A stretch of DNA of 55,387 nucleotides from Candidatus Eiseniibacteriota bacterium (GCA_043809585.1 JBDROZ010000018.1:1-55387), one strand, 5' to 3'; shown: positions 1,767-37,050, numbered from the stretch's first letter. Program-made: numbers and translations. Notes: a model not told the origin generated them from the letters alone.

Positions 1767-2191
1767 GAGTTCAGATCTCCCCTCGGAGGCGAGGCGCGGA
1801 GCCCCTCCAGGAACTTCCGGTCCCCCTCGAGAAAGGGCATCGACCCCGTCTCGACCGGACCGACCCATCGGATCTCCGCCACGCCGATCGCCGACGGCTC
1901 CCCCCCGAGATCCACGATCTCCAGGAAGTGCAGTTCCACGATCTTCTCCGGGTACTCGTGCGTGTACGACGCGATCTCGCTCCCCACCGCGGCCTCCACG
2001 CCGAGCTCCTCCCGGAACTCCCGCCGGAGCGCCTCGGCGTCCGACTCCCCCTCCTCCACCTTGCCGCCGGGGAACTCCCAGAAGCCCGGGTACGGCTTCC
2101 CCTCCGGCCGGAGGGCGGCGAGCACGCGCCGTCCCCGCCGAGCCACGCCGGCGACCACACGGATCGATGGTTTCCGGATTCTAGGTCGCAT
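1763..2191 (-). CDS. mutT: NUDIX (d)NTP pyrophosphohydrolase, MutT/NudG family
   Basis: WEFPGGKVEEGESDAEALRREFREELG Nudix box. Confidence 0.88.
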   Translation of the reverse strand: MRPRIRKPSIRVVAGVARRGRRVLAALRPEGKPYPGFWEFPGGKVEEGESDAEALRREFREELGVEAAVGSEIASYTHEYPEKIVELHFLEIVDLGGEPSAIGVAEIRWVGPVETGSMPFLEGDRKFLEGLRASPPRGDLNS

Positions 2192-2362
2192 TTCTCACAC
2201 GCTTTCGTCGCGAGGGCTCGGAGGTCGTGGCGAGACGCCGCCTTGGACGAGGAGCCGCCGGAGGCGCAGCCCTGGCTGCGGTGAGTCGGCGATGACGGAA
2301 AGGCGGTGTCGCAGCCCGAGATGCGGGCACACAGCAGGAAGGGGGTGAGAAATGCGGCCTAG
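2181..2362 (+). mobile_element. ~180-bp MITE/REP-like rod element (family F, copy 1) flanked by CTAG direct repeats
   Basis: CTAG at 2181-2184 and 2359-2362; terminal IR gtcgcatttctcac/gtgagaaatgcggc; loop motifs shared with 36336-36517 and 36870-37050. Confidence 0.75.
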
Positions 2363-2371
2363 AATCCGAGG

Positions 2372-3882
2372 TCATCCGGTGAAGAGGGCGCGGGAGGCGG
2401 CGGTGAGGGCGTCCAGAATCCCGAAGCGGAACCCGAAGAGCGTGGTCGGGATCACCAGGAGGGCGATGATCAAGAGGTGCAGAAGCGAGAAGTTCGGGAG
2501 CGGCCGCGGATCCGACTCGTCCGGCGTGTCGATGAACATGGTCTTCATGATGCGGGCGTAGTAATAGAGCGAGACCACGCTGTTCAGCGCGCCGACGATG
2601 GCGAGCCAGTAGATCTGCTTCTCGATCACCGCCTTGAAGATGTACAACTTGCCCACGAAGCCCGCCGTCGGCGGGATCCCCGTGAGAGAGAGGAGGAAGA
2701 CCACCATGGCCGCGCCGAGGAAGGGCGCCTTCCAGCCGAGGCCCCGGATGTCCGCGAAGGTCTCCCGCCGCCCGTCGACGGAGAGGGCGATCACCACCAG
2801 GAACGCCCCGAGATTCATGATCGCGTAGACCGCGAGGTAGAAGAGGATCGCCTGGTTGCCCGATTCGTTCATCACCACGGCGCCCATCAGCATGTAGCCG
2901 GCGTGGGCGATAGACGAGTAGGCGAAGAGCCTCTTCAAGTTATCCTGCCAGATGGCGGCCAGATTCCCGAGGGTCATGGTCACCGCCGACAAGATGCCGA
3001 GGAGGAAGGGCCAATCCATCGGCCCGACGGAGACGAACCCGGACCCGACCCTTTCGGAGAGGGCGGACTGGAAGAAGCGGATCAGCACGGCGAGCCCCGC
3101 CGCCTTCGGCGCCACCGAGAAGAAGGCGGTCACCGGCGTCGCGCTCCCCTCGTAGACGTCGGGCGCCCACATGTGGAACGGAACGGCGGCGATCTTGTAG
3201 CCGAAGCCGGCGACCACGAAGACCACCGGCACGAGAAGATGGACCTTCGAAAGCTCCAAGGTGAGAAGCGTCTCCCGGATCACCGAGAGGTCGATGGAGC
3301 CGGTCATGCCGTAGAGGAACGAGAACCCGTAGAGCATCGCCCCCGACGCCGCGGCGCCGTACACCGCGTATTTCAAAGCCGCCTCGCTCGCCATCCGGTC
3401 CCGCCGGAGGAATCCGGCCAGGAGGTACGAGGGGAGGGAGACCATCTCGAGGGCGAGGTAGATCATGATCAGGTTCGACGCCGAGGCGAGGAGGATCATG
3501 CCGAGCGCCGTGGTCAGGACGAGGGTGACGAACTCGGCGTATCGGGGGCCCCGGAGTTCCCTGTATGGATGGGCGACGAGAAGAACCGCCGCCGTCACGA
3601 CCAGGAAGAACCAGCGGAAGAAGACCGAGAACGGGTCCCACGCGATGGCGCCCCGAAGAGGAGGAGCCTGTATCCGCCGCTGCCGATGGCCACGAGGACG
3701 AGGAGCGCCGCGCCGAGACCGGCGAGCGCCGTGATCAGCGTGCCGAGAGAGGCCCCGCCCCCCTCTTCCCCCTTACCCCGCCTGCCGGCGATCAGGTCGA
3801 AGAGGATCACGAGCAGGATCGTGCCGATCAGCACGATCTCGGGCAGAAAGTACAGGATGCTTCTGCCGTTCCCGAGGATCAC
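2372..3882 (-). CDS. nuoN: NADH-quinone oxidoreductase subunit N, split by 1-nt frameshift at 3651-3654
   Basis: FLPEIVL N-terminus in ORF 3595..3882; YKIAAVPFHMWAPDVYEG and KRLFAYSSIAHAG in ORF 2372..3598; one added G gives LFGGAIAWDPFSVFF. Confidence 0.92.
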
Positions 3883-3894
3883 GTCCGTCCCCTC

Positions 3895-5397
3895 CTAGCC
3901 CCAGACCACCTTGACGAGGTAGTTCATCGAAGTTTGCATCATTCCCAGGATCGGGTGCGGGTAGAAACCGAGGATCAGCACGATCACGCCGAGGGGAGCG
4001 AGGGTGAAGATCTCCCGGCCGCTGATCTCCGGAAGGGCGGCGTACTTCTCGTTCAGGGGACCGAGGAAGATCCGCTGGAACGTCCAGAGCATGTAGGCCG
4101 CGCCGAGGACGATTCCCGTGGAGCAGAGAATGGTGATCGTCTGGAACGTCTTGAATCCGCCGATCAGCACCAGCGCCTCCGAGATGAACCCGGAGAGGCC
4201 GGGTAGGCCGATGGCGGCGAAGAAGGCCAGCGACGTGATCGTCCCGTAGATCGGCATGCGGGAGAGGAGGCCGCCGAAGCCCTCGATCTCCCGGTGGTGG
4301 GCCCGGTCGTAGAGGACCCCCACGAGGAGGAAGAGCATGGCCGTGATCGTCCCGTGGTTGAACATCTGGAGGACCGCGCCGTTCATCCCCTGCTCCGTGC
4401 CGGACGCCATGCCGAGCAGGACGAATCCCATGTGGCTGATCGACGAGTAGGCGATCAGCTTCTTGAGGTCCTTCTGGGCCATCGCGCAGAGCGCGCCGTA
4501 GACGATGTTGATGAGAGCGAACACGGCCAGCGCCGGGGCGAACCAGTGGGACGCCTCGGGCAGGATCGGATAGCTGATGCGGAGAATGCCGTAGGTCCCC
4601 ATCTTCAATAGGATGCCGGCCAGGATCACCGAGATCGGCGTCGGCGCCTCCACGTGCGCGTCGGGGAGCCACGTGTGGAACGGGAAGATCGGCACCTTGA
4701 TGGCGAAGCCGATGAAGAGGCCGATGAAGATCACCTTCCCGAAGTCGAGGGCGGAGCCGAAGAGGCCGATCGTGCCGCCGTCCACCCCCGAGTTCATGAG
4801 CTGCACCATGTTGAACGTGTGCCCCCCCTTGAAGTAGAGGGCCAGGATGCAGAGCAGCATCAGCACCGAGCCGAACAGCGTGTAGAGGAAGAACTTGATC
4901 GCCGCGTACACCTTCCGGGGGCCGCCCCAGACCCCGATGAGGAAGTACATCGGCAGGAGCATGATCTCCCAGAACAGATAGAAGAGGAAGAAGTCGAGGG
5001 AGAGGAAGACCCCCATCATGCCCACCTGGAGGAGGAGGAACATGGAGAAGTATCCCCGGAGCCCCTTGTCGATGCCGAAGGAGGCGAACATGCAGAGGAA
5101 CCCGAGGAGCGCCGTCAGGAGCACCATGGTGACCGACAGCCCGTCGACCCCCATGTAGTACTGGATGTGGAACGACGGGATCCACGCCTTCATGACGACG
5201 AACTGGAACGACTCGGGGTCGTTGATTCCCGCCATCCCTCGGTCGAACGCGCCGAACAGGTAGACCGACAGGGCGAGAGGGATGATGGTTCCCGCTACCG
5301 CCGTCCACCGGATCGCGTTTTTGCGATCCCCGGGGATCAGCAGGATCACGGGAATGAACAACAGGGGCGAAAAGGTGATCCAGGTGAGCAGGTCCAT
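3895..5397 (-). CDS. nuoM: NADH-quinone oxidoreductase subunit M
   Basis: AIKVPIFPFHTWLPDAHVEAP, LLKMGTYG, KKLIAYSSISHMG. Confidence 0.97.
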   Translation of the reverse strand: MDLLTWITFSPLLFIPVILLIPGDRKNAIRWTAVAGTIIPLALSVYLFGAFDRGMAGINDPESFQFVVMKAWIPSFHIQYYMGVDGLSVTMVLLTALLGFLCMFASFGIDKGLRGYFSMFLLLQVGMMGVFLSLDFFLFYLFWEIMLLPMYFLIGVWGGPRKVYAAIKFFLYTLFGSVLMLLCILALYFKGGHTFNMVQLMNSGVDGGTIGLFGSALDFGKVIFIGLFIGFAIKVPIFPFHTWLPDAHVEAPTPISVILAGILLKMGTYGILRISYPILPEASHWFAPALAVFALINIVYGALCAMAQKDLKKLIAYSSISHMGFVLLGMASGTEQGMNGAVLQMFNHGTITAMLFLLVGVLYDRAHHREIEGFGGLLSRMPIYGTITSLAFFAAIGLPGLSGFISEALVLIGGFKTFQTITILCSTGIVLGAAYMLWTFQRIFLGPLNEKYAALPEISGREIFTLAPLGVIVLILGFYPHPILGMMQTSMNYLVKVVWG

Positions 5398-5462
5398 CGG
5401 TTTACGATCCTTCCCGATCCGGTCTTGCGGGTCCCCTGCGGCTCGCCGCCGCGACTATTTCC

Positions 5463-7673
5463 TTAGAACCGCCACGCGAGGAAGATCAGGATGATAATCC
5501 CCCCGAAAGCGGCCATGACGTAACTCTGGATGGTTCCGGTCTGAACGCGCCGGACCCGATCGCCCAGCTCGGTCGTGGCGTCGGCCATGAGATTGACCAG
5601 GCCGTCCACGAACAGGTTGTCGAACCATCCGCTGATCCTCGAAACCAGCCGGGCGGCCCAGCCGGTCAGATTCACGAAACCGTCGATGACGACATTGTCG
5701 AAACCCCCGAGGAACCGGGAGAGCTTCATGAGCCCTCCGATCACCGTGGCCCCGTAGATCTCGTCCACGAAGTACTTGTTCTCCACCGTCCGGTGCAGGC
5801 CCCGAATCCCGCCGCGAATCCTCTCCGGAAGCTCGGGGCGCCGCATGTAGAAGTGGTGGGCGAGGCCGATGCCGCCGAGGGCGACCGCCACGGAGAGGAT
5901 CATGAGGAGGTACTCGGTCGCCGCCGAGTGGCCGCCGTGGGCCGACGGGGCGCCATGAGAGGAAACCGCGGCTCCGTGGGCGTCGTGGACCGGGGCCTCG
6001 CCGTGGGCTTCGGCGGCGACTTTGCCTTCGCCGGTCGTCGCGTGCGCCCGGGCACCGAGCTCTTCGGAGAGATCCCAGTCGAGCAGGGTCTTCCCGTGGG
6101 CGTTCCCGGGGTCGACGACGGGGGCGAGGTAGTGGTGGAATTGGTTCCCCCCCTTCAGGGCCTCGGGGATGCCGACCCACCCCCCCCCGATCGAGAGGGC
6201 GGCGAGAATCACGAGGGGGATCGTCATGGTCTTCGGCGACTCGTGGAGATGGTGCTTCGTCTTTTCGTCCGCCCGGCACTCGCCGAAAAAGGTCATGAAG
6301 ATCAGGCGGAACATGTAAAAGGCGGTGATCCCCGCGGCGAGGAAGCCGACGATCCAGAGGCCGATGTTGCCCCGGTCGCTCGAGAACGCCTTCCAGAGGA
6401 TCTCGTCCTTCGAGAAGAAGCCCGAGAGCCCCGGGATCCCGGAGATGGCGAGGGTCGCGATGAACATGGTCGCGAACGTGACCGGCATGTGCTTCCGGAG
6501 CCCGCCCATCTTCCGCATGTCCTGCTCGCCCCCCATGGCGTGGATCACCGAGCCGGAGCAGAGGAAGAGGCACGCCTTGAAGAAGGCGTGGGTCATGAGA
6601 TGGAAGATGCCCGCCGCGTAGGCGCCGACGCCGACGCCGAGCACCATGTAGCCGAGCTGGCTCACCGTCGAGTAGGCGAGGACCTTCTTGATATCCGTCT
6701 GGGCGATGCCGATGGTCGCCGCGAAGAGAGCCGTCGCGGCGCCGACCACGGCGACGACTCCGAGGGCCGCCGGCGCGAGTGTATAGAGGAAGTTCATCCG
6801 GGCGATCATGTAGACGCCCGCGGTCACCATGGTCGCCGCGTGGATGAGGGCGGAGACCGGCGTCGGGCCCGCCATGGCGTCGGGAAGCCAGACGTACAGC
6901 GGGATCTGGGCCGACTTGCCCGCGGCCCCCACGAAGAGGGCGATCCCGACGAACGTGAGCAGGCCGACCCCGAAGATCGTGTCCCCCTGGAGCAGGTGGA
7001 CCGACTGGGCCATGGCGTAGAAGTTGACCGAGTGGACGCCGTGGCCGGCGAAATACCACCAGAGGGCGAAGACGCCGACGATGAAGCCGAGGTCGCCGAT
7101 CCGGTTCGTGATGAACGCCTTCATCCCCGCGATCGCCTTGTCCATGTCCGTGAACCAGAAGCCGATCAGGAGGTACGAGCAGAGCCCGACCCCCTCCCAG
7201 CCGACGAAGAGGAGAAGGAGGTTGTCCCCCGTGACCAGGGTGAGCATCGCGAAGGTGAAGAGGTTCAGGAAGGCGAAGTAGCGGTAGTAGCCCCTGTCGC
7301 CGTGCATGTAGCCGACCGAGTAAAGGTGGATCAGCCCGCCCACGCCGGTCACGACGAGGATCATCACCGCCGAGAGATGGTCGAGGAGGAAGTTGACCGA
7401 GATCCGCATGTCGCCGACGGAGAACCAGGTGTAGACCCGGTCCGTGACGACCCCGCCCTCGACGCCGCGGAGCGACAGGACCGAGACGAGGGCCATGACG
7501 AAGGAGGCCGCCACGGTCCCGACGGCGACGAAGGCGATCGCCTTCTCGCCGAGCTTCTCCTGGATCTTCTTGCCGAAGAACCCGTTCCACGCCGCCCCGA
7601 TCAGGGGGAGCAGCACGATCCACTTGAGCAGGTCGTACTCGGGAATGAGTGTGGCCCCGAATGCTCCGTGCAC
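5463..7673 (-). CDS. nuoL: NADH-quinone oxidoreductase subunit L
   Basis: GKSAQIPLYVWLPDAMAGPTPVSALIHAATMVTAG, THAFFKA, QTGTIQSY. Confidence 0.97.
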   Translation of the reverse strand: MHGAFGATLIPEYDLLKWIVLLPLIGAAWNGFFGKKIQEKLGEKAIAFVAVGTVAASFVMALVSVLSLRGVEGGVVTDRVYTWFSVGDMRISVNFLLDHLSAVMILVVTGVGGLIHLYSVGYMHGDRGYYRYFAFLNLFTFAMLTLVTGDNLLLLFVGWEGVGLCSYLLIGFWFTDMDKAIAGMKAFITNRIGDLGFIVGVFALWWYFAGHGVHSVNFYAMAQSVHLLQGDTIFGVGLLTFVGIALFVGAAGKSAQIPLYVWLPDAMAGPTPVSALIHAATMVTAGVYMIARMNFLYTLAPAALGVVAVVGAATALFAATIGIAQTDIKKVLAYSTVSQLGYMVLGVGVGAYAAGIFHLMTHAFFKACLFLCSGSVIHAMGGEQDMRKMGGLRKHMPVTFATMFIATLAISGIPGLSGFFSKDEILWKAFSSDRGNIGLWIVGFLAAGITAFYMFRLIFMTFFGECRADEKTKHHLHESPKTMTIPLVILAALSIGGGWVGIPEALKGGNQFHHYLAPVVDPGNAHGKTLLDWDLSEELGARAHATTGEGKVAAEAHGEAPVHDAHGAAVSSHGAPSAHGGHSAATEYLLMILSVAVALGGIGLAHHFYMRRPELPERIRGGIRGLHRTVENKYFVDEIYGATVIGGLMKLSRFLGGFDNVVIDGFVNLTGWAARLVSRISGWFDNLFVDGLVNLMADATTELGDRVRRVQTGTIQSYVMAAFGGIIILIFLAWRF

Positions 7674-7676
7674 GGT

Positions 7677-7997
7677 CTACCCCCGAAGCTGTCTCAGCCG
7701 GTCGGCGTCGATCGACTCGACCTGCCGGTAAATGGCGATGATCACGGCCAGGATGATGACCGCCTCGGCGGCGGCCAGCACGATGATGAAGATCGCGAAG
7801 ACCTGCCCGTCCAGGAGGGAGGCCCCCGCGGCGCTCTTCACGAACCGTCCGAAGGCGACGAAGTTGAGCGCCGCCGCGTTCAGCAGGAGCTCGATGCCCA
7901 TCAGGATCGCCACGGCGTTCCTCCGCGTGGCGATGGTGATCACGCCGAGGGCGGCGAGGATCGAACTGATCAGCAGGTACGACTCCAGCCGGTTCAT
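7677..7997 (-). CDS. nuoK: NADH-quinone oxidoreductase subunit K
   Basis: RRNAVAILMGIELLLNAAALNF, LAAAEA; ATG at 7997 overlaps nuoJ stop. Confidence 0.95.
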   Translation of the reverse strand: MNRLESYLLISSILAALGVITIATRRNAVAILMGIELLLNAAALNFVAFGRFVKSAAGASLLDGQVFAIFIIVLAAAEAVIILAVIIAIYRQVESIDADRLRQLRG

Positions 7998-8494
7998 TCC
8001 AGCTCCTTCCGCGCGAGGGCCACGGCGCCGATGAGAACCGCCAGGAGAAGCACCGACGCCGCCTCGAAGGGGAGGAGGTGCCGGCTGAGCAGGAGGTCGC
8101 CGAGCCCCTGAATCGTCGGTTCCGCGGCCCGCCCGCCGGCGAGGTTCCACCCGAAGCCGATGCCGAGGGGGAGGAAGAGAATCAGGAAGACGAGGGCGCC
8201 GATGAGCGTCGCCGCCGGGACCCGGGCGCTCCCCGATTCGATCGAGCCGCCCTGGATCCGCTGGGTGAAGACCACCCCGAAGAGGATGAGCACCAGAATC
8301 CCGCCGACGTAGACGAGGACCTGGAGGACGGCGATGAAATCGGCGGCCAGGAAGCCGTAGAGGCCCGCCGCCCCTCCGAGGGTGAACAGGAGGGCGAAGG
8401 CGGAGTACACCAGGTTCCGCGAGAAGGCGACGATGAACGCGGGGGCCACCGTCACGATCGCCAGAAAAACGAAAAGGACGTCCGAGAGGGTCAC
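7994..8494 (-). CDS. nuoJ: NADH-quinone oxidoreductase subunit J
   Basis: ADFIAVLQVLVYVGGILVLILF, LLPFEAASVLLL. Confidence 0.95.
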   Translation of the reverse strand: MTLSDVLFVFLAIVTVAPAFIVAFSRNLVYSAFALLFTLGGAAGLYGFLAADFIAVLQVLVYVGGILVLILFGVVFTQRIQGGSIESGSARVPAATLIGALVFLILFLPLGIGFGWNLAGGRAAEPTIQGLGDLLLSRHLLPFEAASVLLLAVLIGAVALARKELE

Positions 8495-9171
8495 GCTTGT
8501 TCCTCGGTCTTTCCCTCCCCGGGGTCATCGGGGGGATTCGCTCCGGTCTTCGGTTCCTCGGCCGGGGGGGGCGCCTCTTCGGCCTTCGCTTCCGGGGGCC
8601 CCTTCGCTTCTTCGTCGGCCTTCTTCTTCGCCGCGGCGGCCTCCGCCTTCAGCCGCGCCTTCTCCTCCTGCTCCTTCTCGTAGAGCGCGTTCTTCTCCAT
8701 CACCTTCGCCTTCCGGTCCTCCGAGACGAAGCGGAGGTGGAGCTTGGAGAGGTCGCTCGTGGCCCCTTCGAACTCCTTGGTGAAGCGGATCGCGCCGGTC
8801 GGGCACGGCTCCACGCAGAGGCCGCAGTACATGCACTTGTAGAGGACGATGTCGAAACGGGTCGCTTCCTTGACCCGGGGCGACTCCTTGCCGGAGACGC
8901 CCATCACCGTGTCCTTCGGGATCTTCACGTCGTCGATGACGATGCACTCGATCGGGCAGTCCCGCTCGCAGGCGCGGCAGCTGATGCAGATGTCCATGTC
9001 CACTTCGAGGTGGCCCCGGTAACGCTCGGGCAGGGTCTTCACGACCGGCTCCGGCGTTTTGTCCGGGTACTGCACCGTGATCGGCGTTCGGAAGAGGTGG
9101 GAGAACGTCACCGCCATGCCGTCGAAGATCGTGGTGCAGGCGTCCTTGATGTTCTCGATGTATCCGATCAC
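8491..9171 (-). CDS. nuoI: NADH-quinone oxidoreductase subunit I (2x[4Fe-4S])
   Basis: TVQYP, RYRG, CISCRACERDCP, CMYCGLCVEPCP. Confidence 0.95.
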   Translation of the reverse strand: MIGYIENIKDACTTIFDGMAVTFSHLFRTPITVQYPDKTPEPVVKTLPERYRGHLEVDMDICISCRACERDCPIECIVIDDVKIPKDTVMGVSGKESPRVKEATRFDIVLYKCMYCGLCVEPCPTGAIRFTKEFEGATSDLSKLHLRFVSEDRKAKVMEKNALYEKEQEEKARLKAEAAAAKKKADEEAKGPPEAKAEEAPPPAEEPKTGANPPDDPGEGKTEEQA

Positions 9172-9181
9172 GGCTCTTTCC

Positions 9182-10381
9182 CTATATGAACGGGTTGAGG
9201 TCCAGTTTCTCGATGCCCGCGTCCTTCAGGTTCTTCCGCACCCGGAGCCCGAACAGCAGGAGCAGCCCGAGGCCGAGGAGGAAGAGTGCCCACGAGACGA
9301 GGCGCGCGAGGGCGTTTCCGTCGGGGAGCGCCATGAGCCAAACGGCCGTCCCGAACATGTTCAGGAACGAGAGCGGCACGAGGTACTTCCAGCAGACGGT
9401 CATCATCTGGTCGACCCGCACCCGCGGCACGGTCCAGCGGACCCAGATGATGACGAAGACCAGGACCCACGACTTCGCCGTGAAGACGGCGACCTGGAAG
9501 AGGGTCTGGAGAAGGCCGGAGAAGACCGCCGGCACGTTCCACCCGCCGAGAAAGAGCACGTTCACGAGGGAGGCGATCACCCACAGGTTGGCCCATTCGG
9601 CCAGCATGAAGAGGGCGAAGCGGATCCCCGAATACTCGGTCGTGTATCCGGCGACGAGCTCCGACTCCGCCTCGGGCAGGTCGAAGGGCGTCCGGTTCCC
9701 CTCCGCCAGGGAGGAGACGAAGAAGAGGAAGAACGCGGCGAAGAGGAAGGGGTTCCGGAAGACGTACCAGTCCACCGGGCTCCACCCCTGGCTCTTGATG
9801 ATCCCCTGAAGGCTGAGCGTCCCCGCGGCGAGAAGCACGGTGAGGAGGCCGAGACCCGAGGGGATTTCATACGAGACGATCTGGGCCGCCGAGCGCATCC
9901 CCCCGAGGAGGGACCATTTGTTGTTCGACGCCCACCCGGCCATGATGATCCCCACCGGGACGAGGGAGGTGATCGCCATGACGTAAAAAACGCCGAGATT
10001 CAGGTCGGCGATGACGAGGTGCTCCGAGAAGGGGATGACGGCGAAGGCGCCGAACATGCCGCAGAAGACGAGGTACGGGGCCATCCGGAAGAGGATCCGG
10101 TCCGCGCCGTCCGGGATCAGGTCCTCCTTGAGGATGCACTTCACGCCGTCGGCGACCCACTGGAGGAGGCCCTGGGGGCCGACCCGGTTCGGGCCGACCC
10201 GCGACTGCATGCGGGCCGCCACGCGCCGCTCCACCCACGTCACTACTCCTGAGAAGGGGGCGACGAAAAGGAAGAGGAGGAGGACCGAGAAGAAGAGCAT
10301 GCCGGCGAAGTAGACGAGGGAGACGGTCCCCTCGCCGCCCCAGCCCTGGCTCCGGATGATCCGATCGAGCAGTTCCTGCAC
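9182..10381 (-). CDS. nuoH: NADH-quinone oxidoreductase subunit H
   Basis: [41 protein letters not shown]. Confidence 0.97.
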
Positions 10382-10393
10382 CGTCCGTCTCTC

Positions 10394-12012: not shown

Positions 12013-12014
12013 GG

Positions 12015-28010: not shown

Positions 28011-28056
28011 CCTTCGATACACCGCGGCCTCCGGCCGCGGCACTCAGGGCGACCGG
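28011..28056 (+). repeat. Family C hairpin
   Basis: 28011-28048 is identical to 561-598 (38 bp). Confidence 0.9.
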
Positions 28057-28105
28057 CTTAGCAGAGACCCGCTCGTACTCCCACTCCCACTCACAGTCTC
28101 CGTCG

Positions 28106-28746
28106 CTATTTTGTGCCGTGCTCTTTCTTGTACTGTAGCCAGTTCTTCTTGAGGTTCACGAACGATGCGAAATCCGGCTGGACGAGGAACGGGTTCGTTT
28201 TCCGTTCCTCGCCGATCGTCGAAGAGGGCCTCACGCCGTAGTCGTGGCCCGGCCAAACCGCGACGTGGTCGGGCAGCCTCATCAGCTTGTCATGCAGGCT
28301 GTCGAACTCCTCTTTCGCGTCCGTCCCGTAGCCCGTGCCCCCCACCTTCCCCACGAAGAGCGTGTCCCCCGAGACCAGATGGTCCCCCACCAGATAGCAG
28401 ACCGAGTCGGGCGTGTGCCCGGGCGTGTGGATCACCTTCACCGCGAGGCTGCCGACGTCGATCGTCTCCCCGTCCTTCACCGCCCGGTCCCCGTTCCCCG
28501 CCGCCCTCGCGTGCAGCCACACCTCCGCCCCGGTCAGTTCGACGAGTTCCTGGTTTCCGTTCGTGTGGTCCGGGTGGTCGTGGGTGATCGCGATCGCCCG
28601 GATCGTGAGCCCCATCTCGTCCGCGAGCGAAAAGACCGCCCGGGGGTTGTACGAAGGATCGAAACGACGGCCGCCCCCCCCGCCTTGTCGCCGGCGAGGT
28701 ACGCGAAGTTCCGGTCGCCGCCGACGAGAATCTGCTCGAATATCAT
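28106..28746 (-). CDS. Metallo-beta-lactamase-fold hydrolase (glyoxalase II-like), 1-nt frameshift near 28662-28681
   Basis: MIFEQILVGGDRNFAYL in one frame; DP, THDHPDH, HTPGHT, SGDTLF, PGHDY in another. Confidence 0.88.
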
Positions 28747-29762
28747 GATCTCTCCCGCTCCGGTCGATCGAGTTCAAAGCGGCCCGCGTGGGCATGGAGC
28801 TTCTTCTTCGCGATCCACTTGACCACGTGGCCCGCGTTCTTTTTCATGTCCGACCGGGCCGTGCAGACCATCCAGCATTTCAATTGGCACGCCCGCACCT
28901 CGTCCCGGATCGTGTCGGCGGCCGCCCCGTTCCAGATCTCGTCCCACGGCTTCTCCCGCACGTTGCCGAGGACCCGCTCCATCACGTTGCACGGGTAGAT
29001 GTCCCCGTTCGGCGCGACGAAGAAGAAATCCTGCGCCGCGTTGCAGACGAATGGCCGCCCCGCGCCGGCGGCGTAGCGGAAGATCCCGTGGGCGAAGAAC
29101 GCCCGGAGCCAGTTCTTCGGGTGGCTCGACCGGAGGAGGTCCTCCACCAGGGGGCCGAGATTCTCCCGCAGCTTCTCGACCAGGCTGAAGTGGTTCTCCT
29201 CGGTCATGAAATAGTGGGACGAGTTCTGGGCCACCGCCATCGTGAACTGGATGCCCATCTCCTTGGTCAGCCGGTACACCTCGGGCAGGTCGTCCACGTT
29301 TTCGTCCACCACCGTGAAGGCGAGGCGGAGATTCGTCATGCCGAGCCCCTTCAGCCTCCCCACCGTGTCCATGCACTTGTCGAATCCCTTCGGGATCCCG
29401 CGCACGTGATCGTGGAGCGCCCCGGCGCCGTCGATCGAGATGCCGACGCCGACGGCCGGGTCGATCTTCAGCACCTCCCGCATCGAGTCCTCGACCTTCT
29501 CCGGCATGAAGCCGTTGCTCGAGATGATGATCTCTGAATCGGGCGCCCGCTCCTTCACGACCGCCACGATCTCGGGGATGTCGCTTCGGAGGAATGGTTC
29601 ACCGCCGGAGATGTTGACGTAACGGATCGACTCGGGCAGGAACCGGTACTCCTCCGGTTCGAGGTCGTTCTTGGACGGGTTCTTCCAGATATTGCACATG
29701 ATGCAGCGGGCATTGCATCGGTACGTGGTGGCGAGGACGACATCGATGGGGCGATAGGTCAC
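28743..29762 (-). CDS. Radical SAM protein with SPASM/twitch domain
   Basis: CNARCIMC, SGGEP, SSNG, ISIDG, C..GDIYPC..CQLKCWMVC; GTG start with AAGGA RBS. Confidence 0.9.
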   Translation of the reverse strand: MTYRPIDVVLATTYRCNARCIMCNIWKNPSKNDLEPEEYRFLPESIRYVNISGGEPFLRSDIPEIVAVVKERAPDSEIIISSNGFMPEKVEDSMREVLKIDPAVGVGISIDGAGALHDHVRGIPKGFDKCMDTVGRLKGLGMTNLRLAFTVVDENVDDLPEVYRLTKEMGIQFTMAVAQNSSHYFMTEENHFSLVEKLRENLGPLVEDLLRSSHPKNWLRAFFAHGIFRYAAGAGRPFVCNAAQDFFFVAPNGDIYPCNVMERVLGNVREKPWDEIWNGAAADTIRDEVRACQLKCWMVCTARSDMKKNAGHVVKWIAKKKLHAHAGRFELDRPERERS

Positions 29763-29920
29763 GGCTTCGTCCTTCCGCGCGCTTTTCAGGGTCGGCCCCG
29801 ATCCAGGGCCGGGCGATTCACGGTACGTCACGGGGGGGCGATTCGTCAACCGACGCCGTTCCGGGGGGTTCGATCGGTTCCGCCTCGGGAACCGGGCGGG
29901 CGGGAAAGGGCCGCGGCGCG

Positions 29921-29950
29921 TTGACTTCGGCCCCCCCCGCGGACTAAGAT
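29921..29950 (+). promoter_or_regulatory. sigma70-type promoter for the radical SAM pair
   Basis: TTGACT-18 bp-TAAGAT. Confidence 0.6.
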
Positions 29951-30090
29951 ATAACAACAAGCAACTGACGGCGCTATTAGCGTTTCCCCCGATTCCGGCC
30001 CTCCGGGCGCTTCGCCATGAACTTCGTGACGGTCACTGGGGCCACCGGTGACGGTCGCCGTTCCGAGGATCGACGAGAAAGCGGGTTCCC

Positions 30091-31704
30091 ATGAGAGAAG
30101 GCTCGTCCAGGGGTTACGACGGGGAGGGGCTCCTCCGGGCCGAGAGGACCTACTCGGGGACGGGGCGCCGGTCCGGCGAGCTCTCGGTGGCCCTCGCCTT
30201 TCCGAACCGCTACTCCCTCGGCATGGCGAACCTCGGCTTCCAGGAGATCCTCGAGAGGTCCCGGCGGGTCCCGTCGGTCGACGCGGAACGGGTCTTCCTC
30301 CCCGAGGGCGAAGAGGGCCCGCTCCGCACTTTCGAGAGCGGCCGCCCCGCCGGCGGCGCGGACGTCATCGCCTTCTCGATCTCCTTCGAGAACGACTACG
30401 TGAACTTCCTCCGGATGCTCGCCGCGGCGAAGGTCCCCCTTCGCCGGGAGGAGCGGGAGGACCGGCATCCGATCGTGCTCGCCGGCGGCGCTTCGACCTT
30501 TCTCAATCCGGAGCCGCTCCGGCCGTTCGTCGACGTCTTCCTCCTCGGCGAGGGGGAGGAGGTGATCGGCGAATACCTCGAGCTCCGCCTCGCCGATCTC
30601 GGACGGCCCCGGGAGGAGCACCTCGCCCGCGCCGCCCGCCTCGACGGGGCGTACGTGCCCGCCTGTCACGGAAGCGCCTCCGGCATCGCCCGGCGGCGTT
30701 ACGACGGGATGAGAGAGGCTCCGGCGATCGGCCGTCTCGTGACGCCCCACGCCGAGTTCGCCGACACGCTGCTCGTCGAGATCTCGAGAGGGTGCCCCCG
30801 GCGCTGCCGGTTCTGCACCGTAGGCACCGTCTTCCCCAAGTTCCGCATGGTCCCCTCGGAGACCGTGATCGAAACGGCCCTCCGCTGCCGTGCCGAGGAC
30901 GAGCGCCTCGGCCGGCCGCCGCTCCGCAAGGTCGGCCTCGTCACGGCCGCCTTCTTCGATCACGTGGAGGCGGAGGAGATCGCGGGGGGCCTCTTCCGCC
31001 GGGGCTTCGAGATCGGCGCCTCGTCGGTGCGGGTCGACCAGTTGACGGACTCGGTGCTCCACTATCTCCGGGAGAGCGGGCTCCGCACCCTCACCATCGC
31101 CCCGGAGGCGGGTACGGCCTCCCTCAGGGAGCGCATCCGCAAGAAGGCGTCGGACGGGAAGATCCTCGAGGGCGTGGAGCGGGCGGCGAAGGCGGGGTTC
31201 CCGTCGCTCCGCATCTACTACATGGTCGGGCTCCCCTTCGAGACCGACGAGGACCGGGCGGGGATCGTCCGCCTCTCCGAGGAGATCCGCGGGCGATTCC
31301 GGGGCGCCGGAGGCCGGAGGGGGAAGGTGACCGTCTCGCTCCATCCCTTCGTGCCGAAGCCGCGAACGCCCTTCCAATGGGCCGCCATGACGAGACCCGC
31401 GGAAATGCGCCGCGTACTGACCGGGCTCCGGGCGAAACTCCGGGGTTTCACGGTGAAGGCGACCGACCTTCGGGAAGCGTACACCGAGGCCGTGCTCGCC
31501 CAGGGGGGCGAGGAACTCGCCCCTTTCCTCGAGCGCATCGCCGGGGGGGAGCGTTGGGACAGGGCGGCGAAGGAGTCAGGCCTCGATCTCGACCGGCTCC
31601 TCTTCGAGGACCGGGTCCCCGGGGAGTCCCCGTGGGAGTCGGGGGAGAAGGACCACGTGGACGAAGTGAACCGGCGCGAATGGAAACGCGCCATCGCGAT
31701 ATAG
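30091..31704 (+). CDS. Uncharacterised radical SAM protein (TIGR03960-like architecture)
   Basis: FPNRYSLGMANLG, LNPEP, GEGE, RGCPRRCRFC, TIAPEAG, FVPKPRTPFQW. Confidence 0.88.
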   Translation: MREGSSRGYDGEGLLRAERTYSGTGRRSGELSVALAFPNRYSLGMANLGFQEILERSRRVPSVDAERVFLPEGEEGPLRTFESGRPAGGADVIAFSISFENDYVNFLRMLAAAKVPLRREEREDRHPIVLAGGASTFLNPEPLRPFVDVFLLGEGEEVIGEYLELRLADLGRPREEHLARAARLDGAYVPACHGSASGIARRRYDGMREAPAIGRLVTPHAEFADTLLVEISRGCPRRCRFCTVGTVFPKFRMVPSETVIETALRCRAEDERLGRPPLRKVGLVTAAFFDHVEAEEIAGGLFRRGFEIGASSVRVDQLTDSVLHYLRESGLRTLTIAPEAGTASLRERIRKKASDGKILEGVERAAKAGFPSLRIYYMVGLPFETDEDRAGIVRLSEEIRGRFRGAGGRRGKVTVSLHPFVPKPRTPFQWAAMTRPAEMRRVLTGLRAKLRGFTVKATDLREAYTEAVLAQGGEELAPFLERIAGGERWDRAAKESGLDLDRLLFEDRVPGESPWESGEKDHVDEVNRREWKRAIAI

Positions 31705-31717
31705 AACGGAGGAGATC

Positions 31718-34270
31718 TTGAGCGCTTGGAAAGACGTCATCTTCGATCTGCTTCCTCACGTCTCGAAGCCGAGCCGCTACCTTCCCCCCGTGAAAAACGG
31801 GCGGGGGGGGGCGCCGGCCGGCGCGGAGGTCCGGTGGGCCCTCCTCTTTCCCGACGTCGCCGAGTCCGGCTATTCTCATCACGGTCTCGAGATCCTCTAC
31901 CACCTCGTTCACGGCCTCGAGGGGGCGGCCGCGGAGCGGGCCTTCTTCCCCTGGACCGACATGGAAGAGCGCATGAGGGAGCGGGGCGTGCCCCTCTTCT
32001 CCTCCGAATCGTACCGGCCGCTCAGGGAGTTTGACCTCCTCGGAATCACGCTGCAATTCGAACTCTCCTGCACGAACGTGGTCGCCTCTCTCGATCTCGC
32101 CGGTCTCCCGCGCCGCGCCGCCGCGCGGAAAGACCCGTTCCCCCTCGTCGCCGGAGGGGGGCCGTGCGCCATGAACCCCGAACCCCTCGCCCCCTTCTTC
32201 GATCTCTTCCTGCTCGGCGACGGAGAGGAGGGGGTGATCGCCATCACCTCCGCCGTGGGCCTGTGGAAACGGGAGGGGGACGGCAAGAAGGAGAGCCTCC
32301 TCGCGGCGCTCGCCGGGGTGCCGGGCGTCTACGTCCCCTCCCTCTACAAGATGAAGTACGGGCCCGACGGAAGACTCGCCGGGGCCGAGGGCCCTCCGGT
32401 CCGGCGGCTCGCCCTGGCGGACGTGACCCGCTTCCCCGCGCCCGAGGCGCCCGTGGTCCCCGCGGTTCAGCCGATCCACGACCGGGTGTACGCGGAGATC
32501 GCTCGGGGATGCGGCGTCGGATGCCGATTCTGCCAGGCGGGGATGATCTACCGACCCCTTCGGGAGCGGCCGAAGGAGGAAGTGGTGGCCGCCGCGGCGG
32601 CGGCGGTTCGGAGCACGGGGCACGAAGACGTCTCCCTCGCCTCTCTCTCCACGGGGGACCACGCCGAGATCCTGCCGATGATGCGTCTCCTGAACGACGA
32701 GCTTAAAGGAGAACGGGTCGGCATCTCGCTCCCTTCGCTCCGGGCCTCGACGCTGACCGATCCGATGATCGCCGAGGTGGCGCGGCACCGGAAGACGGGG
32801 TTCACCATCGCCCCCGAGGCGGGCTCGGAGCGGATGCTCCGTCTCATCAACAAAGGGATCGCACGGGAAGACGTGATCCGCACGGCCGAGCGGGCGGCCG
32901 CTCGGGGGTGGGACATATTGAAGCTCTACTTCCTGATCGGTTTGCCGACGGAGGAGGACGAAGACCTCGAAGGGATCGCCTCGCTCTCCGAAGAGGTGTG
33001 GCGCGCCGGGAAGCGGGCGGGGAGGCGGGGGCTCCGGCTGAACGTCAGTGTGTCGAGCCTCGTGCCGAAGCCCCACACCCCGTTCCAGTGGGAGCGGCAG
33101 GACGGCATCGCGGAGATCGAGAGGAAGCAGCGGGTGATCCGGGAGCGGATGCCCCGCACCCGCGATATCGCCCTGAAGTGTCACAACCCGTACCAGACCC
33201 ACATCGAGGGGGTGCTCTCCCGGGGGGACCGGAAGGTGGCGGACGCGATCGAGGCGGCGGTCGATCTCGGCGCCCGCTTCGACGAGTGGAGCGAGATGTT
33301 CTCCCACGACCGCTGGATGCAGGCGTTCGAGCGTGCCGGGGTCGACCCGGAGGAGTATCTCAGGGAGCGCCACGACTACGAGGTTCTTCCCTGGGACCAC
33401 ATCGACAGCGGGATCGCGAAGCGGTTTCTGCTCCGGGAGCGGGGCCGGGCGCGTACGGGGCGATTCACCCCGTTCTGCCGGGAGGAGTGCCGCGTCTGCC
33501 GGACCTGCGGCGACGACCTCTTCGTGATCCGCGGGAAGGACGCCGGCGGGAACGGAGCCGGCGGCGGAGGGGAAGAGACCGCGGCGCCGGAGCCCGAGCC
33601 CCCCCGGGAGGCGAAGCTCCGGCTCCGGTTCCGCTACGCGAAGGAGGGGGACTTCCGCTTTCTCTCCCACCTGGAACTCGGGAGGCTCTTCCGCATGGCC
33701 CTCCGGCGCACGGGCCTCCCGATCGCCTACAGCCGCGGTTTCCACCCCCACGTTCGCGTCGCCTTCGGTCCGGCCCTTCCCGTCGGGTATGCCGGCGCCG
33801 AAGAACCGATCGAGTTCCTCTTCCACGCCCCGGTCCTGCCGGAGGAGGCGGAGCGCAGCCTGAACGAAGAGCTCCCGCCGCCGGTCCGCGTGTTCGGCGG
33901 GGAGGCGGTCCCCCTCCGCGGTACGGCCCTCGACGCCCTTCCGATGGAGATGGAGTACGAGGTGATCGCGCCGGAGGCGCTCGACTACGACCGGATCGCC
34001 GCGGAGGCGGAGCGTTTCGCCGACGCGACCGAAGTGTGGGGCGAGAAGACGTCGAAGAAGGGGAAGACCCGGCGCATCAACCTCCGGGAAGCGGTCGTCG
34101 ATCTCCGTGCGGACCGTGCGCACCGCCGGATCTCGATCACCATGGGGAGCGGCGGGCGCGTCACCGACGTGCTCCGCATTCTCGCGGGAGGCGGAGAGGA
34201 GGCGAGGAGCCTCCGGGTCCGGCGCGCACGAGCCGCGATCCTCGAGGAGGCGCCGGCCCAAAAGGATTGA
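31718..34270 (+). CDS. TIGR03960-type radical SAM fused to TIGR03936/DUF2344-type C-terminal domain
   Basis: KPSRY, RGCGVGCRFC, VPKPHTPFQW, GARFDEW, LPWDHID, RFLSHLE, YSRGFHPH, GPALPVG. Confidence 0.9.
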   Translation: MSAWKDVIFDLLPHVSKPSRYLPPVKNGRGGAPAGAEVRWALLFPDVAESGYSHHGLEILYHLVHGLEGAAAERAFFPWTDMEERMRERGVPLFSSESYRPLREFDLLGITLQFELSCTNVVASLDLAGLPRRAAARKDPFPLVAGGGPCAMNPEPLAPFFDLFLLGDGEEGVIAITSAVGLWKREGDGKKESLLAALAGVPGVYVPSLYKMKYGPDGRLAGAEGPPVRRLALADVTRFPAPEAPVVPAVQPIHDRVYAEIARGCGVGCRFCQAGMIYRPLRERPKEEVVAAAAAAVRSTGHEDVSLASLSTGDHAEILPMMRLLNDELKGERVGISLPSLRASTLTDPMIAEVARHRKTGFTIAPEAGSERMLRLINKGIAREDVIRTAERAAARGWDILKLYFLIGLPTEEDEDLEGIASLSEEVWRAGKRAGRRGLRLNVSVSSLVPKPHTPFQWERQDGIAEIERKQRVIRERMPRTRDIALKCHNPYQTHIEGVLSRGDRKVADAIEAAVDLGARFDEWSEMFSHDRWMQAFERAGVDPEEYLRERHDYEVLPWDHIDSGIAKRFLLRERGRARTGRFTPFCREECRVCRTCGDDLFVIRGKDAGGNGAGGGGEETAAPEPEPPREAKLRLRFRYAKEGDFRFLSHLELGRLFRMALRRTGLPIAYSRGFHPHVRVAFGPALPVGYAGAEEPIEFLFHAPVLPEEAERSLNEELPPPVRVFGGEAVPLRGTALDALPMEMEYEVIAPEALDYDRIAAEAERFADATEVWGEKTSKKGKTRRINLREAVVDLRADRAHRRISITMGSGGRVTDVLRILAGGGEEARSLRVRRARAAILEEAPAQKD

Positions 34271-34332
34271 TCCGGGAGCGGTTCTGGGGTAGTCTCGCGG
34301 TCGATAATTCCGCATGCCGAAGGAGTTTCCTC

Positions 34333-35058
34333 TTGATCGTCGCGTTCATCTCCGACATCCACGGCAACCTCGAGGCGCTCGAGACGGCGGTCCGCCACAT
34401 CGACACGGCCGGGGTGGACGAGGTCATCTGTCTCGGCGACGTGGTCGGTTACGGCGCGAGCCCGAACGAGTGCGTCGACCTGGTTCGCTCCCGGTGTTCC
34501 CACGCGCTTCTCGGCAATCACGACGCGGCCGCCGTCGGCATGACGTCGGTGGAGTACTTCAACGCCCACGCCCGGAAGGCGGCGAATTGGACGCGGGAGA
34601 AGCTGACCGACGAGAACACGGCGTACATCGAGTCCCTTCCCATGGACTACCGGGCGGACGACTTCTACGCCGTGCACGCCTCGCCCCACGAACTGGAGGA
34701 GTGGCACTACGTCACCAACCAGGGGGTGGCGGACGAGGCCTTCGCCCACTTCAACGACACGATCTGCTTCCTCGGCCACTCCCACGTGCCCGTCCTCTTC
34801 GAGGAGAACGGCGACCGGGGGGAACGGCTGAAGGAAGGCGTGATCGCGTTCGAGAAGGGACGGCGGTTCATCGTGAACGTCGGTTCCGTGGGGCAGCCGA
34901 GGGACAACGATCCGCGGCTCTCCTTCGGAATCTACGACACGGAGAAGCGGGAACTCACGCTCCGCCGGGAGGAGTACGACGTGGCGATGGCGTCGGACAA
35001 GATCCTGAAGGCCGGGCTGCCGGAGATGCTGGCCAGCCGCCTTCATATGGGTGTCTGA
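34333..35058 (+). CDS. Calcineurin-like metallophosphoesterase
   Basis: SDIHGN, LGDVVGYG, GNHD, GHSH, NVGSVGQPRD; TTG start with AGGAG RBS. Confidence 0.92.
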   Translation: MIVAFISDIHGNLEALETAVRHIDTAGVDEVICLGDVVGYGASPNECVDLVRSRCSHALLGNHDAAAVGMTSVEYFNAHARKAANWTREKLTDENTAYIESLPMDYRADDFYAVHASPHELEEWHYVTNQGVADEAFAHFNDTICFLGHSHVPVLFEENGDRGERLKEGVIAFEKGRRFIVNVGSVGQPRDNDPRLSFGIYDTEKRELTLRREEYDVAMASDKILKAGLPEMLASRLHMGV

Positions 35059-35181
35059 CCCGCCGCGCCTCTCCCGGCAGAGGAGCGACGGAACGAGAGA
35101 ATCGGTTTCAACGGACCTTGCGGTCCGGTCCCCGGCGTCCATCATCGACGACGAACCATGCGTAGGGAGAGGCGGGATCTC

Positions 35182-36333
35182 ATGGACCTGACCCAAGAAC
35201 AACTGTCGATCCAGAAGATGGTCCGGGACTTCGCCCGAAAGGAGATCGCGCCGCGCTCGGCGGAGTACGATCAAAAGGGCGAATTCCCTTACGACCTGAT
35301 TCGCAAGGCGGCCGACCTCGGGCTTCTCGGCGTCCCCTTCCCGGAGGAGTACGACGGAGCGGGACTGGACTACATGAGCTATGCCCTGGTGATCGAGGAG
35401 ATTTCCAAGGTGGACTCCTCCGTGGGGATCACGATCCTCACCCACACATCGAACAGCATGAACCCGATATGGGAGTTCGGCACGGAGGAGCAGAGGAAGA
35501 AGTACATCCCCCCCCTCGCCCGGGGGGAGAAGATCGCCGCCTACTGCCTGACCGAGCCGAACGCCGGCTCCGACGCCCGCGCCCTCGAGACGACGGCGAT
35601 TGAAGAGGGCGACCACTTCGTCATGAACGGATCGAAGGTCTTCATCACGAACGGATCCGTGGCGGAAACTTACGTGGTGGTGGCCCGCACCGATCCCGAG
35701 CTCGGCACGAAGGGGATCAGCATGTTCATCCTCGAGAAGGGGATGGAGGGTCTCCGCCCCGGCAAGAAAGAGGACAAGATGGGGTGGCGCGCCTCGGACA
35801 CGACCGAGGTGATCTTCGAGAACGTGAAGGTGCCGAAGGAGAACCTCTTGGGCGCGAGGGGCAGAGGCTTCTACCAGGCGATGAAGCAGCTCGCCGCGGG
35901 CCGTTTCTCCGTGGCCGCCCTCTCCCTCGGGATCGCCGAGGGAGCCTTCGAGGAGGCGCTCAAGTACTCGAAGCAGCGGGAGCAGTTCGGGAAGCCGATC
36001 TGCGAGTTCCAGGCGGTGCAGGCGAAACTGGCGGACATGGCGGTCGGTATCGCATGCGGGAAGCACCTGACCTACCGGGCGGCGAGGCTCCGGGACCGGG
36101 GGGAGGACGTCACCACCGCCGCCGCGATGGCGAAGCTCTACTGCAGCGAACTCGCCATGGAGAACACGACCGAAGCGGTGCAGATTCACGGCGCCTACGG
36201 CATCACGAAGGATTACCCCGTGGAGCGTTTCATGCGGGACGCGAAGGCGTGCACCATCGGCGAGGGAACGAGCGAGATCCAGCGCATCATCATCGCCAAG
36301 CAGATGGTGAAGGGCGCCTTCGACTGGACCTAA
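35182..36333 (+). CDS. Acyl-CoA dehydrogenase (short/branched-chain type)
   Basis: CLTEPNAGSD, NGSKVFITN, REQFGKPI, QIHGAYG, IGEGTSEIQR. Confidence 0.95.
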   Translation: MDLTQEQLSIQKMVRDFARKEIAPRSAEYDQKGEFPYDLIRKAADLGLLGVPFPEEYDGAGLDYMSYALVIEEISKVDSSVGITILTHTSNSMNPIWEFGTEEQRKKYIPPLARGEKIAAYCLTEPNAGSDARALETTAIEEGDHFVMNGSKVFITNGSVAETYVVVARTDPELGTKGISMFILEKGMEGLRPGKKEDKMGWRASDTTEVIFENVKVPKENLLGARGRGFYQAMKQLAAGRFSVAALSLGIAEGAFEEALKYSKQREQFGKPICEFQAVQAKLADMAVGIACGKHLTYRAARLRDRGEDVTTAAAMAKLYCSELAMENTTEAVQIHGAYGITKDYPVERFMRDAKACTIGEGTSEIQRIIIAKQMVKGAFDWT

Positions 36334-36335
36334 CC

Positions 36336-36517
36336 CGGCCCGCGGTTCGGAGTCGGTTCCTACTGCGTGTGAGAATCGCGGCCTGCGACTGTGTTTCTCC
36401 GTCGCCCGCATCCTCGACATAGCTAGGGCTATGCCTCCGGGTGCGGGCTCGTCCGAAACACGTCTCGGCGGCGCGATTCTGACCCTCGCTACGGAACCGA
36501 CTCCGAACCGCGGGCCG
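36336..36517 (-). mobile_element. Family F rod element, copy 2; truncated duplicate of one end at ~36586-36626
   Basis: Perfect 25-bp terminal IR cggcccgcggttcggagtcggttcc; nested stems; conserved loop motifs on the minus strand. Confidence 0.75.
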
Positions 36518-36707
36518 AAGGGCAGTCTCGTTACGAGCTCCTTCGTGATCCGTGAGCCACGCCCACGATCTCGAATCTTCGGGGCCTCGCTACGAATCCG
36601 GTTCCGAACCGCGGGCCGAAGGGCACCCGAATTTCTCAGGGTGCAGAAGAGGAGTCCGAGAAGAATGGTCACTTTGGAGTGAGTGGGGGACTGGTTCCGC
36701 CCGAGCC

Positions 36708-36805
36708 TCCGGAAATCCGGGGACATGATACTTATTACAGGCAACGGAAGAACAATCCCGGGAACCGAACACCGGTAATAAGTATCATGTCCCCGGATTT
36801 CCGGA
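36708..36805. repeat. Perfect 31-bp inverted repeat with 36-nt spacer (family E)
   Basis: tccggaaatccggggacatgatacttattac / gtaataagtatcatgtccccggatttccgga. Confidence 0.92.
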
Positions 36806-36869
36806 TTTCTCGAACCTGTCCCACCATACTGTTTGGCCTGCATTCCGTCTCTTTTCGAGCAAGTTCTGA

Positions 36870-37050
36870 TCAGCCAGGGTTCCGCGATCGGTTCGTCGCG
36901 AGGGGGCGGGATGTGGTGCGAGAGGACGTTCTGGACGAGTCCCCTCCCGGAGGCATGGCCGAAGCCATGTCGAGGAAGGGGACGACGGAAGAACCCCTCG
37001 TAGCCCGCAGACCGCCTCCGCAGCAGAACCGATCGCGGAATCCGGGCTAG
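36870..37050 (+). mobile_element. Family F rod element, copy 3
   Basis: IR ttccgcgatcggttc/gaaccgatcgcggaa; ends TCAG...CTAG; same loop motifs. Confidence 0.75.

Follow-up and report, generated by a model that had tools for sequence, protein, structure and literature searches.

Rod-folding repeats of Eisenbacteria, probably TA-inserting MITE-like transposons with a single-stranded shape under selection

The question raised by this locus is why three elements whose stems differ in sequence should each fold into the same long rod, and what kind of genetic element they represent. The window, by which we mean the whole stretch of DNA analysed, is a contig of 55,387 nucleotides (C18; GCA_043809585.1 JBDROZ010000018.1:1-55387) in a 4.24-Mb assembly of a Candidatus Eiseniibacteriota bacterium (G000; 123 contigs, 66% GC). 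The three rods, as they are called here, lie at 2181..2362 (copy 1), 36334..36517 (copy 2) and 36870..37050 (copy 3), and the strand that carries their GAG motifs, hereafter the GAG strand, is the plus strand in copies 1 and 3 and the minus strand in copy 2. A covariance model of the family, R1, returned exactly these three matches in the whole window, with scores of 150.7 bits (span 2177-2366), 173.3 bits (36331-36522) and 169.3 bits (36865-37055), respectively. Each copy is predicted to form one hairpin of ~185 nt, with minimum free energies as RNA of -120.5, -135.9 and -123.9 kcal/mol for copies 1, 2 and 3; the corresponding z-scores are -8.0, -12.2 and -10.1, and 0 of 200 shuffled sequences fold as well. 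An earlier account of the window, the sequence-only reading, had placed three copies here, each a single long hairpin, with four loop pairs in common between stems that differ and yet pair. The matches and the folding statistics bear this out, and the loop pairs, including the GGTGAG of copy 1, are visible both in the sequence and in the alignment. We propose that the rods are probably abundant, non-autonomous, TA-duplicating transposons of Eisenbacteria, ~185-190 bp long and resembling MITEs (transposable elements of the miniature inverted-repeat kind), and that their single-stranded shape is selected.

The shape of the rod emerges from an alignment of 58 copies of the same genome, which are less than 88% identical to one another and have a mean pairwise identity of 63%, and for which RNAalifold gave a single rod of 60 pairs. 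Standard pairs occupy 91.1% of the pair cells, against 67.0% when the 3' partners are shuffled, a level of pairing that 0 of 500 shuffles reached, and only 35-43% of the cells are paired when the partners are slid by 1-3 columns. Compensatory double changes affect 56 of the 60 pairs, with 855 double-change cells where 240 are expected; the covariation on which the sequence-only reading had staked its claim is present in this larger alignment. The 67 copies of five other genomes are 93.7% paired, against 82.2% when shuffled and 35-40% when slid, in an alignment that was fitted to the model and so favours the structure. As a whole, each copy is one long imperfect palindrome of ~185-190 bp, and no conserved hairpin was found inside either single arm. 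At the ends is a short and loosely conserved tip, which reads G[C/G]CCGCGG, or GCCTGGATTATGCA in the currently active, young subfamily. It is accompanied by an outer stem of ~24 bp that differs in 57 of the 58 copies, yet is ~90% paired, whereas the apical helices occur in a few variants common to several copies. The inner rod keeps the sequence of five or six small, asymmetric, purine-rich internal loops, and the intervening helices differ among copies by compensated changes. Two of these loops set C-GA-G against C-GYA-G, two set N-GGA-N against N-GA-N and one sets GUC against A. The motifs of one arm are unrelated to those of the other (GGACGAG, for example, stands opposite CGACGGA), and the GA that faces GA in each loop would correspond to the layout of tandem sheared G.A pairs.

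Selection on the folded single strand of GAG polarity, which the sequence-only reading had put forward, is supported by the mismatches that the stems tolerate and by the relative stability of the two strands. With one conserved G.U position excluded, the stems of the 58 copies hold 193 G.U or U.G pairs against 49 A.C or C.A; G.U outnumbers A.C in 50 copies and the reverse is seen in none, and purine-purine mismatches number 210 against 48 pyrimidine-pyrimidine. The other genomes agree, with 191 G.U against 56 A.C (G.U in excess in 57 copies, the reverse in 2, ties in 8). We read the G.U excess as selection on the folded GAG strand because deamination of the non-template or leading strand would push in the opposite direction. 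With RNA parameters, the GAG strand is also the stabler of the two strands in 58 of 58 copies (-118.6 kcal/mol, complement -105.0 kcal/mol), and DNA parameters give the same order in 57 of 58.

A decidedly improbable alternative is that pairing is kept without selection, the arms being homogenised by hairpin-templated repair or gene conversion and by the exchange of nested blocks, with the loops alone selected, as double-stranded sites of a transposase. It would account for outer stems that are unique and yet paired, for apical helices in few shared variants and for the mosaic composition of orthologous copies. The latter is observed in an orthologous trio beside a tRNA gene in three Eisenbacteria genomes (G004, G007 and G008), where all the stem differences are compensated and the G007 copy has the outer stem of G008 but the interior of G004; between G004 and G007, the rod interior is far more alike than the flank, which is 85.5% identical. 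As judged from these sequences, the trio points to an exchange of nested blocks between copies, besides kept pairing. However, the homogenisation of arms leaves unexplained both the one-strand tolerance of G.U and purine-purine mismatches and the unrelated motifs that face each other across the loops, whereas duplex-bound transposon ends usually carry the same site.

The number and distribution of the copies bear on whether the rod is a gene or a mobile element. We estimate that the genome holds ~125 copies, scattered over most of its contigs. Among the 199 matches of an nhmmer profile at E <= 1e-3, 82 are full length; another 18 copies are interrupted, at the apex or within one arm, by 68-180 nt of inserted sequence, many halves lie at contig ends, and R1 matched 109 of 150 scored candidates. 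Indels of 1 nt between the motifs across copies argue against coding. An identical 56-nt core defines the young subfamily in 26 places, 23 of which are at contig ends, so that this subfamily, being recent and uniform, breaks the assembly. It includes longer variants with additional hairpin modules at the apex or on a side branch. The scan of relatives that the sequence-only reading had suggested found rods in 6 of 10 Eisenbacteria genomes (R1 counts of 105 in G000, 62 in G007, 43 in G008, 29 in G003, 26 in G004 and 1 in G005) and no copies in the remaining four (G001, G002, G006 and G009). The single G005 copy, in a 4.9-Mb relative, is located at C2:744694-744883 (locus L072:1501-1690); its 3' end overlaps the stop codon of an open reading frame (ORF) on the opposite strand, in the same orientation as is described below. 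One of 31 unrelated genomes sampled (G016, ~42% GC) contains four diverged copies with the loop motifs kept, and another diverged copy lies on a metagenome contig of 47% GC. A metagenome scan gave 43 loci, of which 8 are real rods, all short, and a scan of genome contigs gave 25 loci, of which R1 confirmed 5, all in one other Eisenbacteria metagenome-assembled genome (MAG); the single matches in other phyla from the latter scan were not upheld by R1.

The sequence-only reading had left the choice between a mobile element and a non-coding RNA. The mobile element stands, on the strength of the TA flanks described below, the ~125 copies and the identical young subfamily at 23 contig ends, while the copy number and the variable ends make a trans-acting RNA unlikely. 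That the rods might be a family of genes for a trans-acting structured RNA is indeed what a ~185-nt rod with conserved internal loops and strong covariation would lead one to expect, but we find it scarcely credible: the copies are flanked by TA and break the assembly, they are patchily present among close relatives, they have no conserved promoter or terminator, and they have no match in Rfam. As regards the latter, the window gave 0 matches at the gathering score, whether to 6S, Y RNA, HEARO/omega RNA or any other family, and the only models at E <= 10 were of microRNAs and small nucleolar RNAs, far below gathering; the statement of the sequence-only reading that the rod belongs to no named family is in agreement with this result. 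A full-text literature search found no description of the rod family and nothing on repeats in Eisenbacteria.

The ends of the rods suggest how they are inserted. They read TA followed by G on the left and C followed by TA on the right, mostly inside CTAG, a tetranucleotide that is rare in this genome (1011 observed against 13177 expected). In the young subfamily, CTAG is present on both sides in every case and the sequence outside is unrelated, whereas older copies have unequal flanking 4-mers, such as TTAG...CTAG, ATAG...CTAG and TTAG...CTAA. Such inequality fits a 2-bp duplication of TA with element ends G...C, and is not what a 4-bp duplication would predict. Two pairs of contigs that are 90-93% identical are common only up to the first arm or the first few bases of a rod and then diverge. 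Stretches of 0.4-2.5 kb with this degree of identity are shared by several contig pairs of the genome (C12/C56, C77/C104, C76/C99, C17/C61 and others), often at contig ends; they look as if the bin contained paralogous regions or a second strain, and two of them end within a rod.

The insertion sites are also related to the neighbouring genes. Genes were called with our own codon-usage caller, whose 2954 predictions cover 87% of the genome. Of 100 complete copies, 57 lie within ~15 nt of a predicted stop codon, and the abutting stop is TAG in 46 of 61 abutments, compared with 39% of all called genes, an excess that fits the TA of a stop codon followed by the G of the element making TAG. Relative to the abutting gene, the GAG strand runs antisense in 50 cases and sense in 11 (p = 5e-7), and between tandem gene pairs the numbers are 34 and 6. 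No bias is seen in the young subfamily (10 antisense, 9 sense), whereas all the other, old copies are 40 antisense and 2 sense, from which it follows that insertion is neutral in orientation and that the bias arises afterwards. A cause in the replication strand was considered and set aside, the link to GC skew being weak (38 to 27). We hypothesise that, after insertion, selection would purge copies that place the GAG strand in the mRNA of the neighbour, or would retain antisense ones.

The three copies of the window conform to this orientation, each having its GAG strand antisense to a neighbouring gene recognised by Pfam, as the sequence-only reading had noted for all three. Copy 1, with CTAG at 2181-2184 and at 2359-2362, is situated between the stop codon (minus strand, 2372-2374) of a Mrp/NADH-quinone antiporter-like gene (2372..3598, minus strand; Proton_antipo_M), 9 nt away, and the start of a NUDIX gene, also on the minus strand. 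A plus-strand ORF at 1405-2184 has no Pfam match, so that the neighbourhood of copy 1 is corrected here: its real neighbours are both on the minus strand. Copy 2 begins right after the TAA stop codon (36331-36333, in CTAA) of an acyl-CoA dehydrogenase gene (35158..36333, plus strand; Acyl-CoA_dh_N/M/1). The right end of copy 3 is the CTAG at 37047-37050, 1 nt off the TAG stop codon (37052-37054, minus strand) of a transglycosylase gene (37052..37726, minus strand; Transgly, 186 bits), and its left end is degenerate, reading TCAG. At this acyl-CoA dehydrogenase/transglycosylase locus, there are two rods in G000, one elsewhere in G008 and none in G004 or G007, so that the insertions there are independent.

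The contrast between old and young copies invites the proposal that the rod has become a gene-end module retained by the host, in which antisense copies are kept because the folded GAG strand is useful at the 3' ends of genes; we regard this as possible but unlikely, and it is compatible with a transposon origin. The module may act as antisense RNA or at the level of the template DNA strand. It may, for instance, halt or insulate transcription in the antisense or convergent direction, or provide a docking place for a protein. The ratios of 40 to 2 and 10 to 9 are in keeping with it, as are the ~90% pairing of old copies although each outer stem is unique, the full compensation in the trio beside the tRNA gene together with an interior more alike than the flank, and the conservation of the loops even in the distant genome of ~42% GC. 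Moreover, some old copies are flanked by pairs of T-runs and A-runs that resemble two-way terminators. Against a host function, no conserved promoter or U-tract was found, the purging of harmful sense copies would give the same bias without any benefit, and related genomes of the same family apparently manage without copies. The mosaic of the trio points to recombination over steady constraint. In the contigs of one metatranscriptome run, a single exact piece of 151 nt fell inside the acyl-CoA dehydrogenase gene and no transcript covered the rods, a result that is neutral between the two views.

What moves the rods would be, in our proposal, a DDE transposase supplied in trans, most likely of the IS630/Tc1-mariner type, with the tip acting as the terminal inverted repeat and the conserved loops being read by a protein on the folded GAG-polarity single strand, as DNA or RNA. 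The IS630/Tc1-mariner type is favoured since the IS630 family duplicates TA, in CTAG. Several copies of an IS630-family transposase gene are present in G000, and 3 of 5 rod-rich genomes contain full IS630 copies, against 0 of 4 rod-less ones. The young tip GCCTGGATTATGCA is common to the young rods, to an unrelated 195-bp rod MITE of the same genome and to the dominant subfamily in another genus (g5), which suggests that the tip may be the part used by the transposase. The unrelated family consists of whole-length hairpins of ~195 bp with TA flanks, a tip, GCCTTGATCTTTCATAAAATCTCG, near that of the young rods, and unrelated, variable interiors; it is represented at C112:14717-14909, C111:65178-65371 and C16:21289-21482 and at many contig ends of G000. 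The rods answer to the description of MITEs as small, non-coding and multi-copy elements with terminal inverted repeats, their ends pairing with each other. MITEs that duplicate TA and are attributed to IS630-type transposases include RUP of pneumococcus, Nezha of cyanobacteria and Correia/NEMIS of Neisseria. The rods resemble this group in being small (100-200 bp), non-coding and numerous, in folding over their whole length, in inserting at TA (IS630 prefers CTAG) and in lying at gene ends. They differ from it in that their termini are mostly unique to each copy, whereas IS630-type MITEs have conserved terminal inverted repeats, in that their asymmetric internal loops are conserved and their structure is selected on one strand, and in that no insertion sequence (IS) with matching ends was found.

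Several observations weigh against this proposal. The ends of the IS630 elements, TA followed by TTGACAATCGCATAAG in G000 and G004 or by GAGAGTCTCGCACAAATA in G008, are unlike the rod tip. No IS with rod-like terminal repeats was found in the same or related genomes, which are fragmented MAGs, and no full IS630 in the rod-rich G003 and G007, a weak point given that these too are MAGs. Likewise, no longer, gene-carrying rod was found in G000 when 5' and 3' halves were paired up to 6 kb, the only insertions being those of 68-180 nt, and no gene-carrying form exists among the 8 real rods of the 43 metagenome loci. A clean empty site was not found, the duplication of TA being deduced from flank asymmetry alone. 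The genome-wide counts at gene ends depend on a crude codon-usage caller, with Pfam checks on the ORFs of the window only, and the orientation bias is weaker in the other genus (20 to 11, not significant), where one young-type subfamily is dominant. Finally, an outer stem that is unique in 57 of 58 copies around conserved interior loops is odd for a DDE transposon, a class in which the terminal repeats are normally the conserved part and the interior is free.

Other candidates for the autonomous partner were rejected. The sequence-only reading had seen no cognate enzyme in the window, and there is none there. Similar tips also enclose a candidate stretch of 1.3 kb, whose gene looks PpiC/SurA-like and not like a transposase. 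An IS1634-family IS has ends (TA followed by GCCCGACTT...) whose likeness to the rod tips is too weak; it occupies C55:5672-7683 (2012 bp, a 587-aa transposase, flanks CTAG and CTAA, ends GCCCGACTTCGCGGATTCG), and one copy of it sits in the internal CTAG of a long rod variant on C104. An IS1380-family IS on C96 (locus L090:1116-2732; a 444-aa transposase and perfect 22-bp inverted repeats, GCCCAGATCCACGGGTAAGGGC) has a similar tip, GCCCAGATCC, but is flanked by TTA on both sides and was not found in the rod-rich G003, G004 and G007; the end of a second copy, on C38, runs directly into TA and an IS630 end.

It could also be proposed that the rods are mobilised as single strands by a HUH/Y1 enzyme, in the manner of REPINs or of IS200/IS605, the GAG strand being excised and inserted as folded single-stranded DNA and the two TAs representing the target and the cleavage site of the element. 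A structure selected on one strand only and asymmetric interior features that are conserved between variable paired spacers would be in keeping with such a route, and the genome does possess two Y1_Tnp (RAYT-like) genes, on C51 and C96. However, the repeat on the flanks of both Y1 genes belongs to a different REP family (GGGGACACGATACC...) and no rod adjoins them, the best R1 score beside them being 21 bits, on a different small MITE, and they were consequently not retained as cognates. TA is found at both flanks whatever the outer base, and there are no separate subterminal hairpins in either arm. Moreover, single-strand transposons are expected to be strand-biased at insertion, whereas young rods are unbiased in orientation and the rods as a whole follow replication skew only weakly. 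We therefore consider this route improbable.

The comparison with the named families of this type leads in the same direction. REPs, which measure 20-40 bp and bear a tag, GTAG or CGTC, and REPINs, which are REP doublets, combine conserved short motifs with variable, compensating hairpin stems, and a single-stranded folded form has been proposed for them (PMC3116915, PMC3733652). Their copies are described as lying downstream of genes, between convergent or tandem ORFs (PMC3116915, PMC3733652). Measured against those descriptions, the rods are alike in their conserved motifs, in their variable, compensating stems and in their location downstream of genes, but unlike in forming one TA-flanked hairpin of 185 bp that has five to six loops, in a genome whose RAYT genes stand beside another repeat. 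Membership of the REP/REPIN-RAYT group was rejected, with no rods beside Y1 genes and no hairpin within a single arm. Elements of the IS200/IS605 type have subterminal hairpins at each end, insert 3' of a fixed tetra- or pentanucleotide without duplication and show replication strand bias. A palindromic element derived from them was likewise rejected in view of the single rod fold, the TA at both flanks, the skew link of 38 to 27 and the unbiased young copies. The rods also bring to mind ERIC (IRU) of Enterobacteria, whole-length imperfect palindromes in transcribed intergenic DNA that are conserved across genera and for which orientation-dependent effects on mRNA are reported; the palindromic build and the size are similar, but the rods belong to another phylum and have no sequence similarity to ERIC, and the hypervariable stems of the rods contrast with ERIC copies, which resemble one another in sequence. 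Neither the descriptions of REPINs nor those of TA-inserting MITEs were found to combine flanking TA with ends that are paired but hypervariable, asymmetric loops that are conserved, selection on one strand and an orientation that depends on age.

A more radical possibility, which we hold to be doubtful, is that the rod is a mobile element defined by its structure, in which the folded GAG strand and its ladder of tandem G.A loops, and not terminal repeats, would be recognised by a dedicated protein in Eisenbacteria and in the AT-rich lineage, and in which the host would have retained old stop-codon copies as gene-end modules of the antisense strand. A parallel is the attC site of integrons, recognised as a folded single strand with a stem that is unique to each copy but paired, and with conserved unpaired features that set the strand. 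The rods share with it the stem sequence that is unique per copy yet paired and the conserved unpaired features; attC sites, however, have R/L boxes, lie in arrays of cassettes beside an integrase (intI) and undergo recombination at GTT, whereas rods are dispersed singly at TA/CTAG over the contigs. If this possibility were true, a principle of recognition like that of attC or REPINs would operate in a TA-inserting element. Bacterial MITEs are usually defined by their terminal repeats, while the rods keep asymmetric loops and a one-strand fold as their stems drift with compensation, even in a distant AT-rich genome, which raises for the transposon field the question of what recognises them, as RNA or as single-stranded DNA. 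The unbiased young copies beside the 40 to 2 of the old ones constitute a natural experiment on the host filtering or co-option of gene-end insertions. At a practical level, the rods account for many of the places where Eisenbacteria MAGs break into contigs and for many TAG stop codons, and R1 is a covariance model ready for annotation.

Other features of the window were observed around copies 2 and 3. A stretch at 36560-36625 resembles, by eye, the last ~45 nt of copy 2 (compare 36484-36525) and appears to be a solo fragment, without an R1 match. Between the two copies, at 36684-36826, there is a separate near-perfect palindrome with arms ...CCGGAAATCCGGGGACATGATACTTATTAC..., and a repeat of the same GGGGACA.GATAC type is present beside the Y1/RAYT gene on C51. 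Further downstream, an ORF with a GIY-YIG nuclease domain (38014-38814, plus strand; Pfam, 41.5 bits) overlaps the region upstream of the transglycosylase gene.

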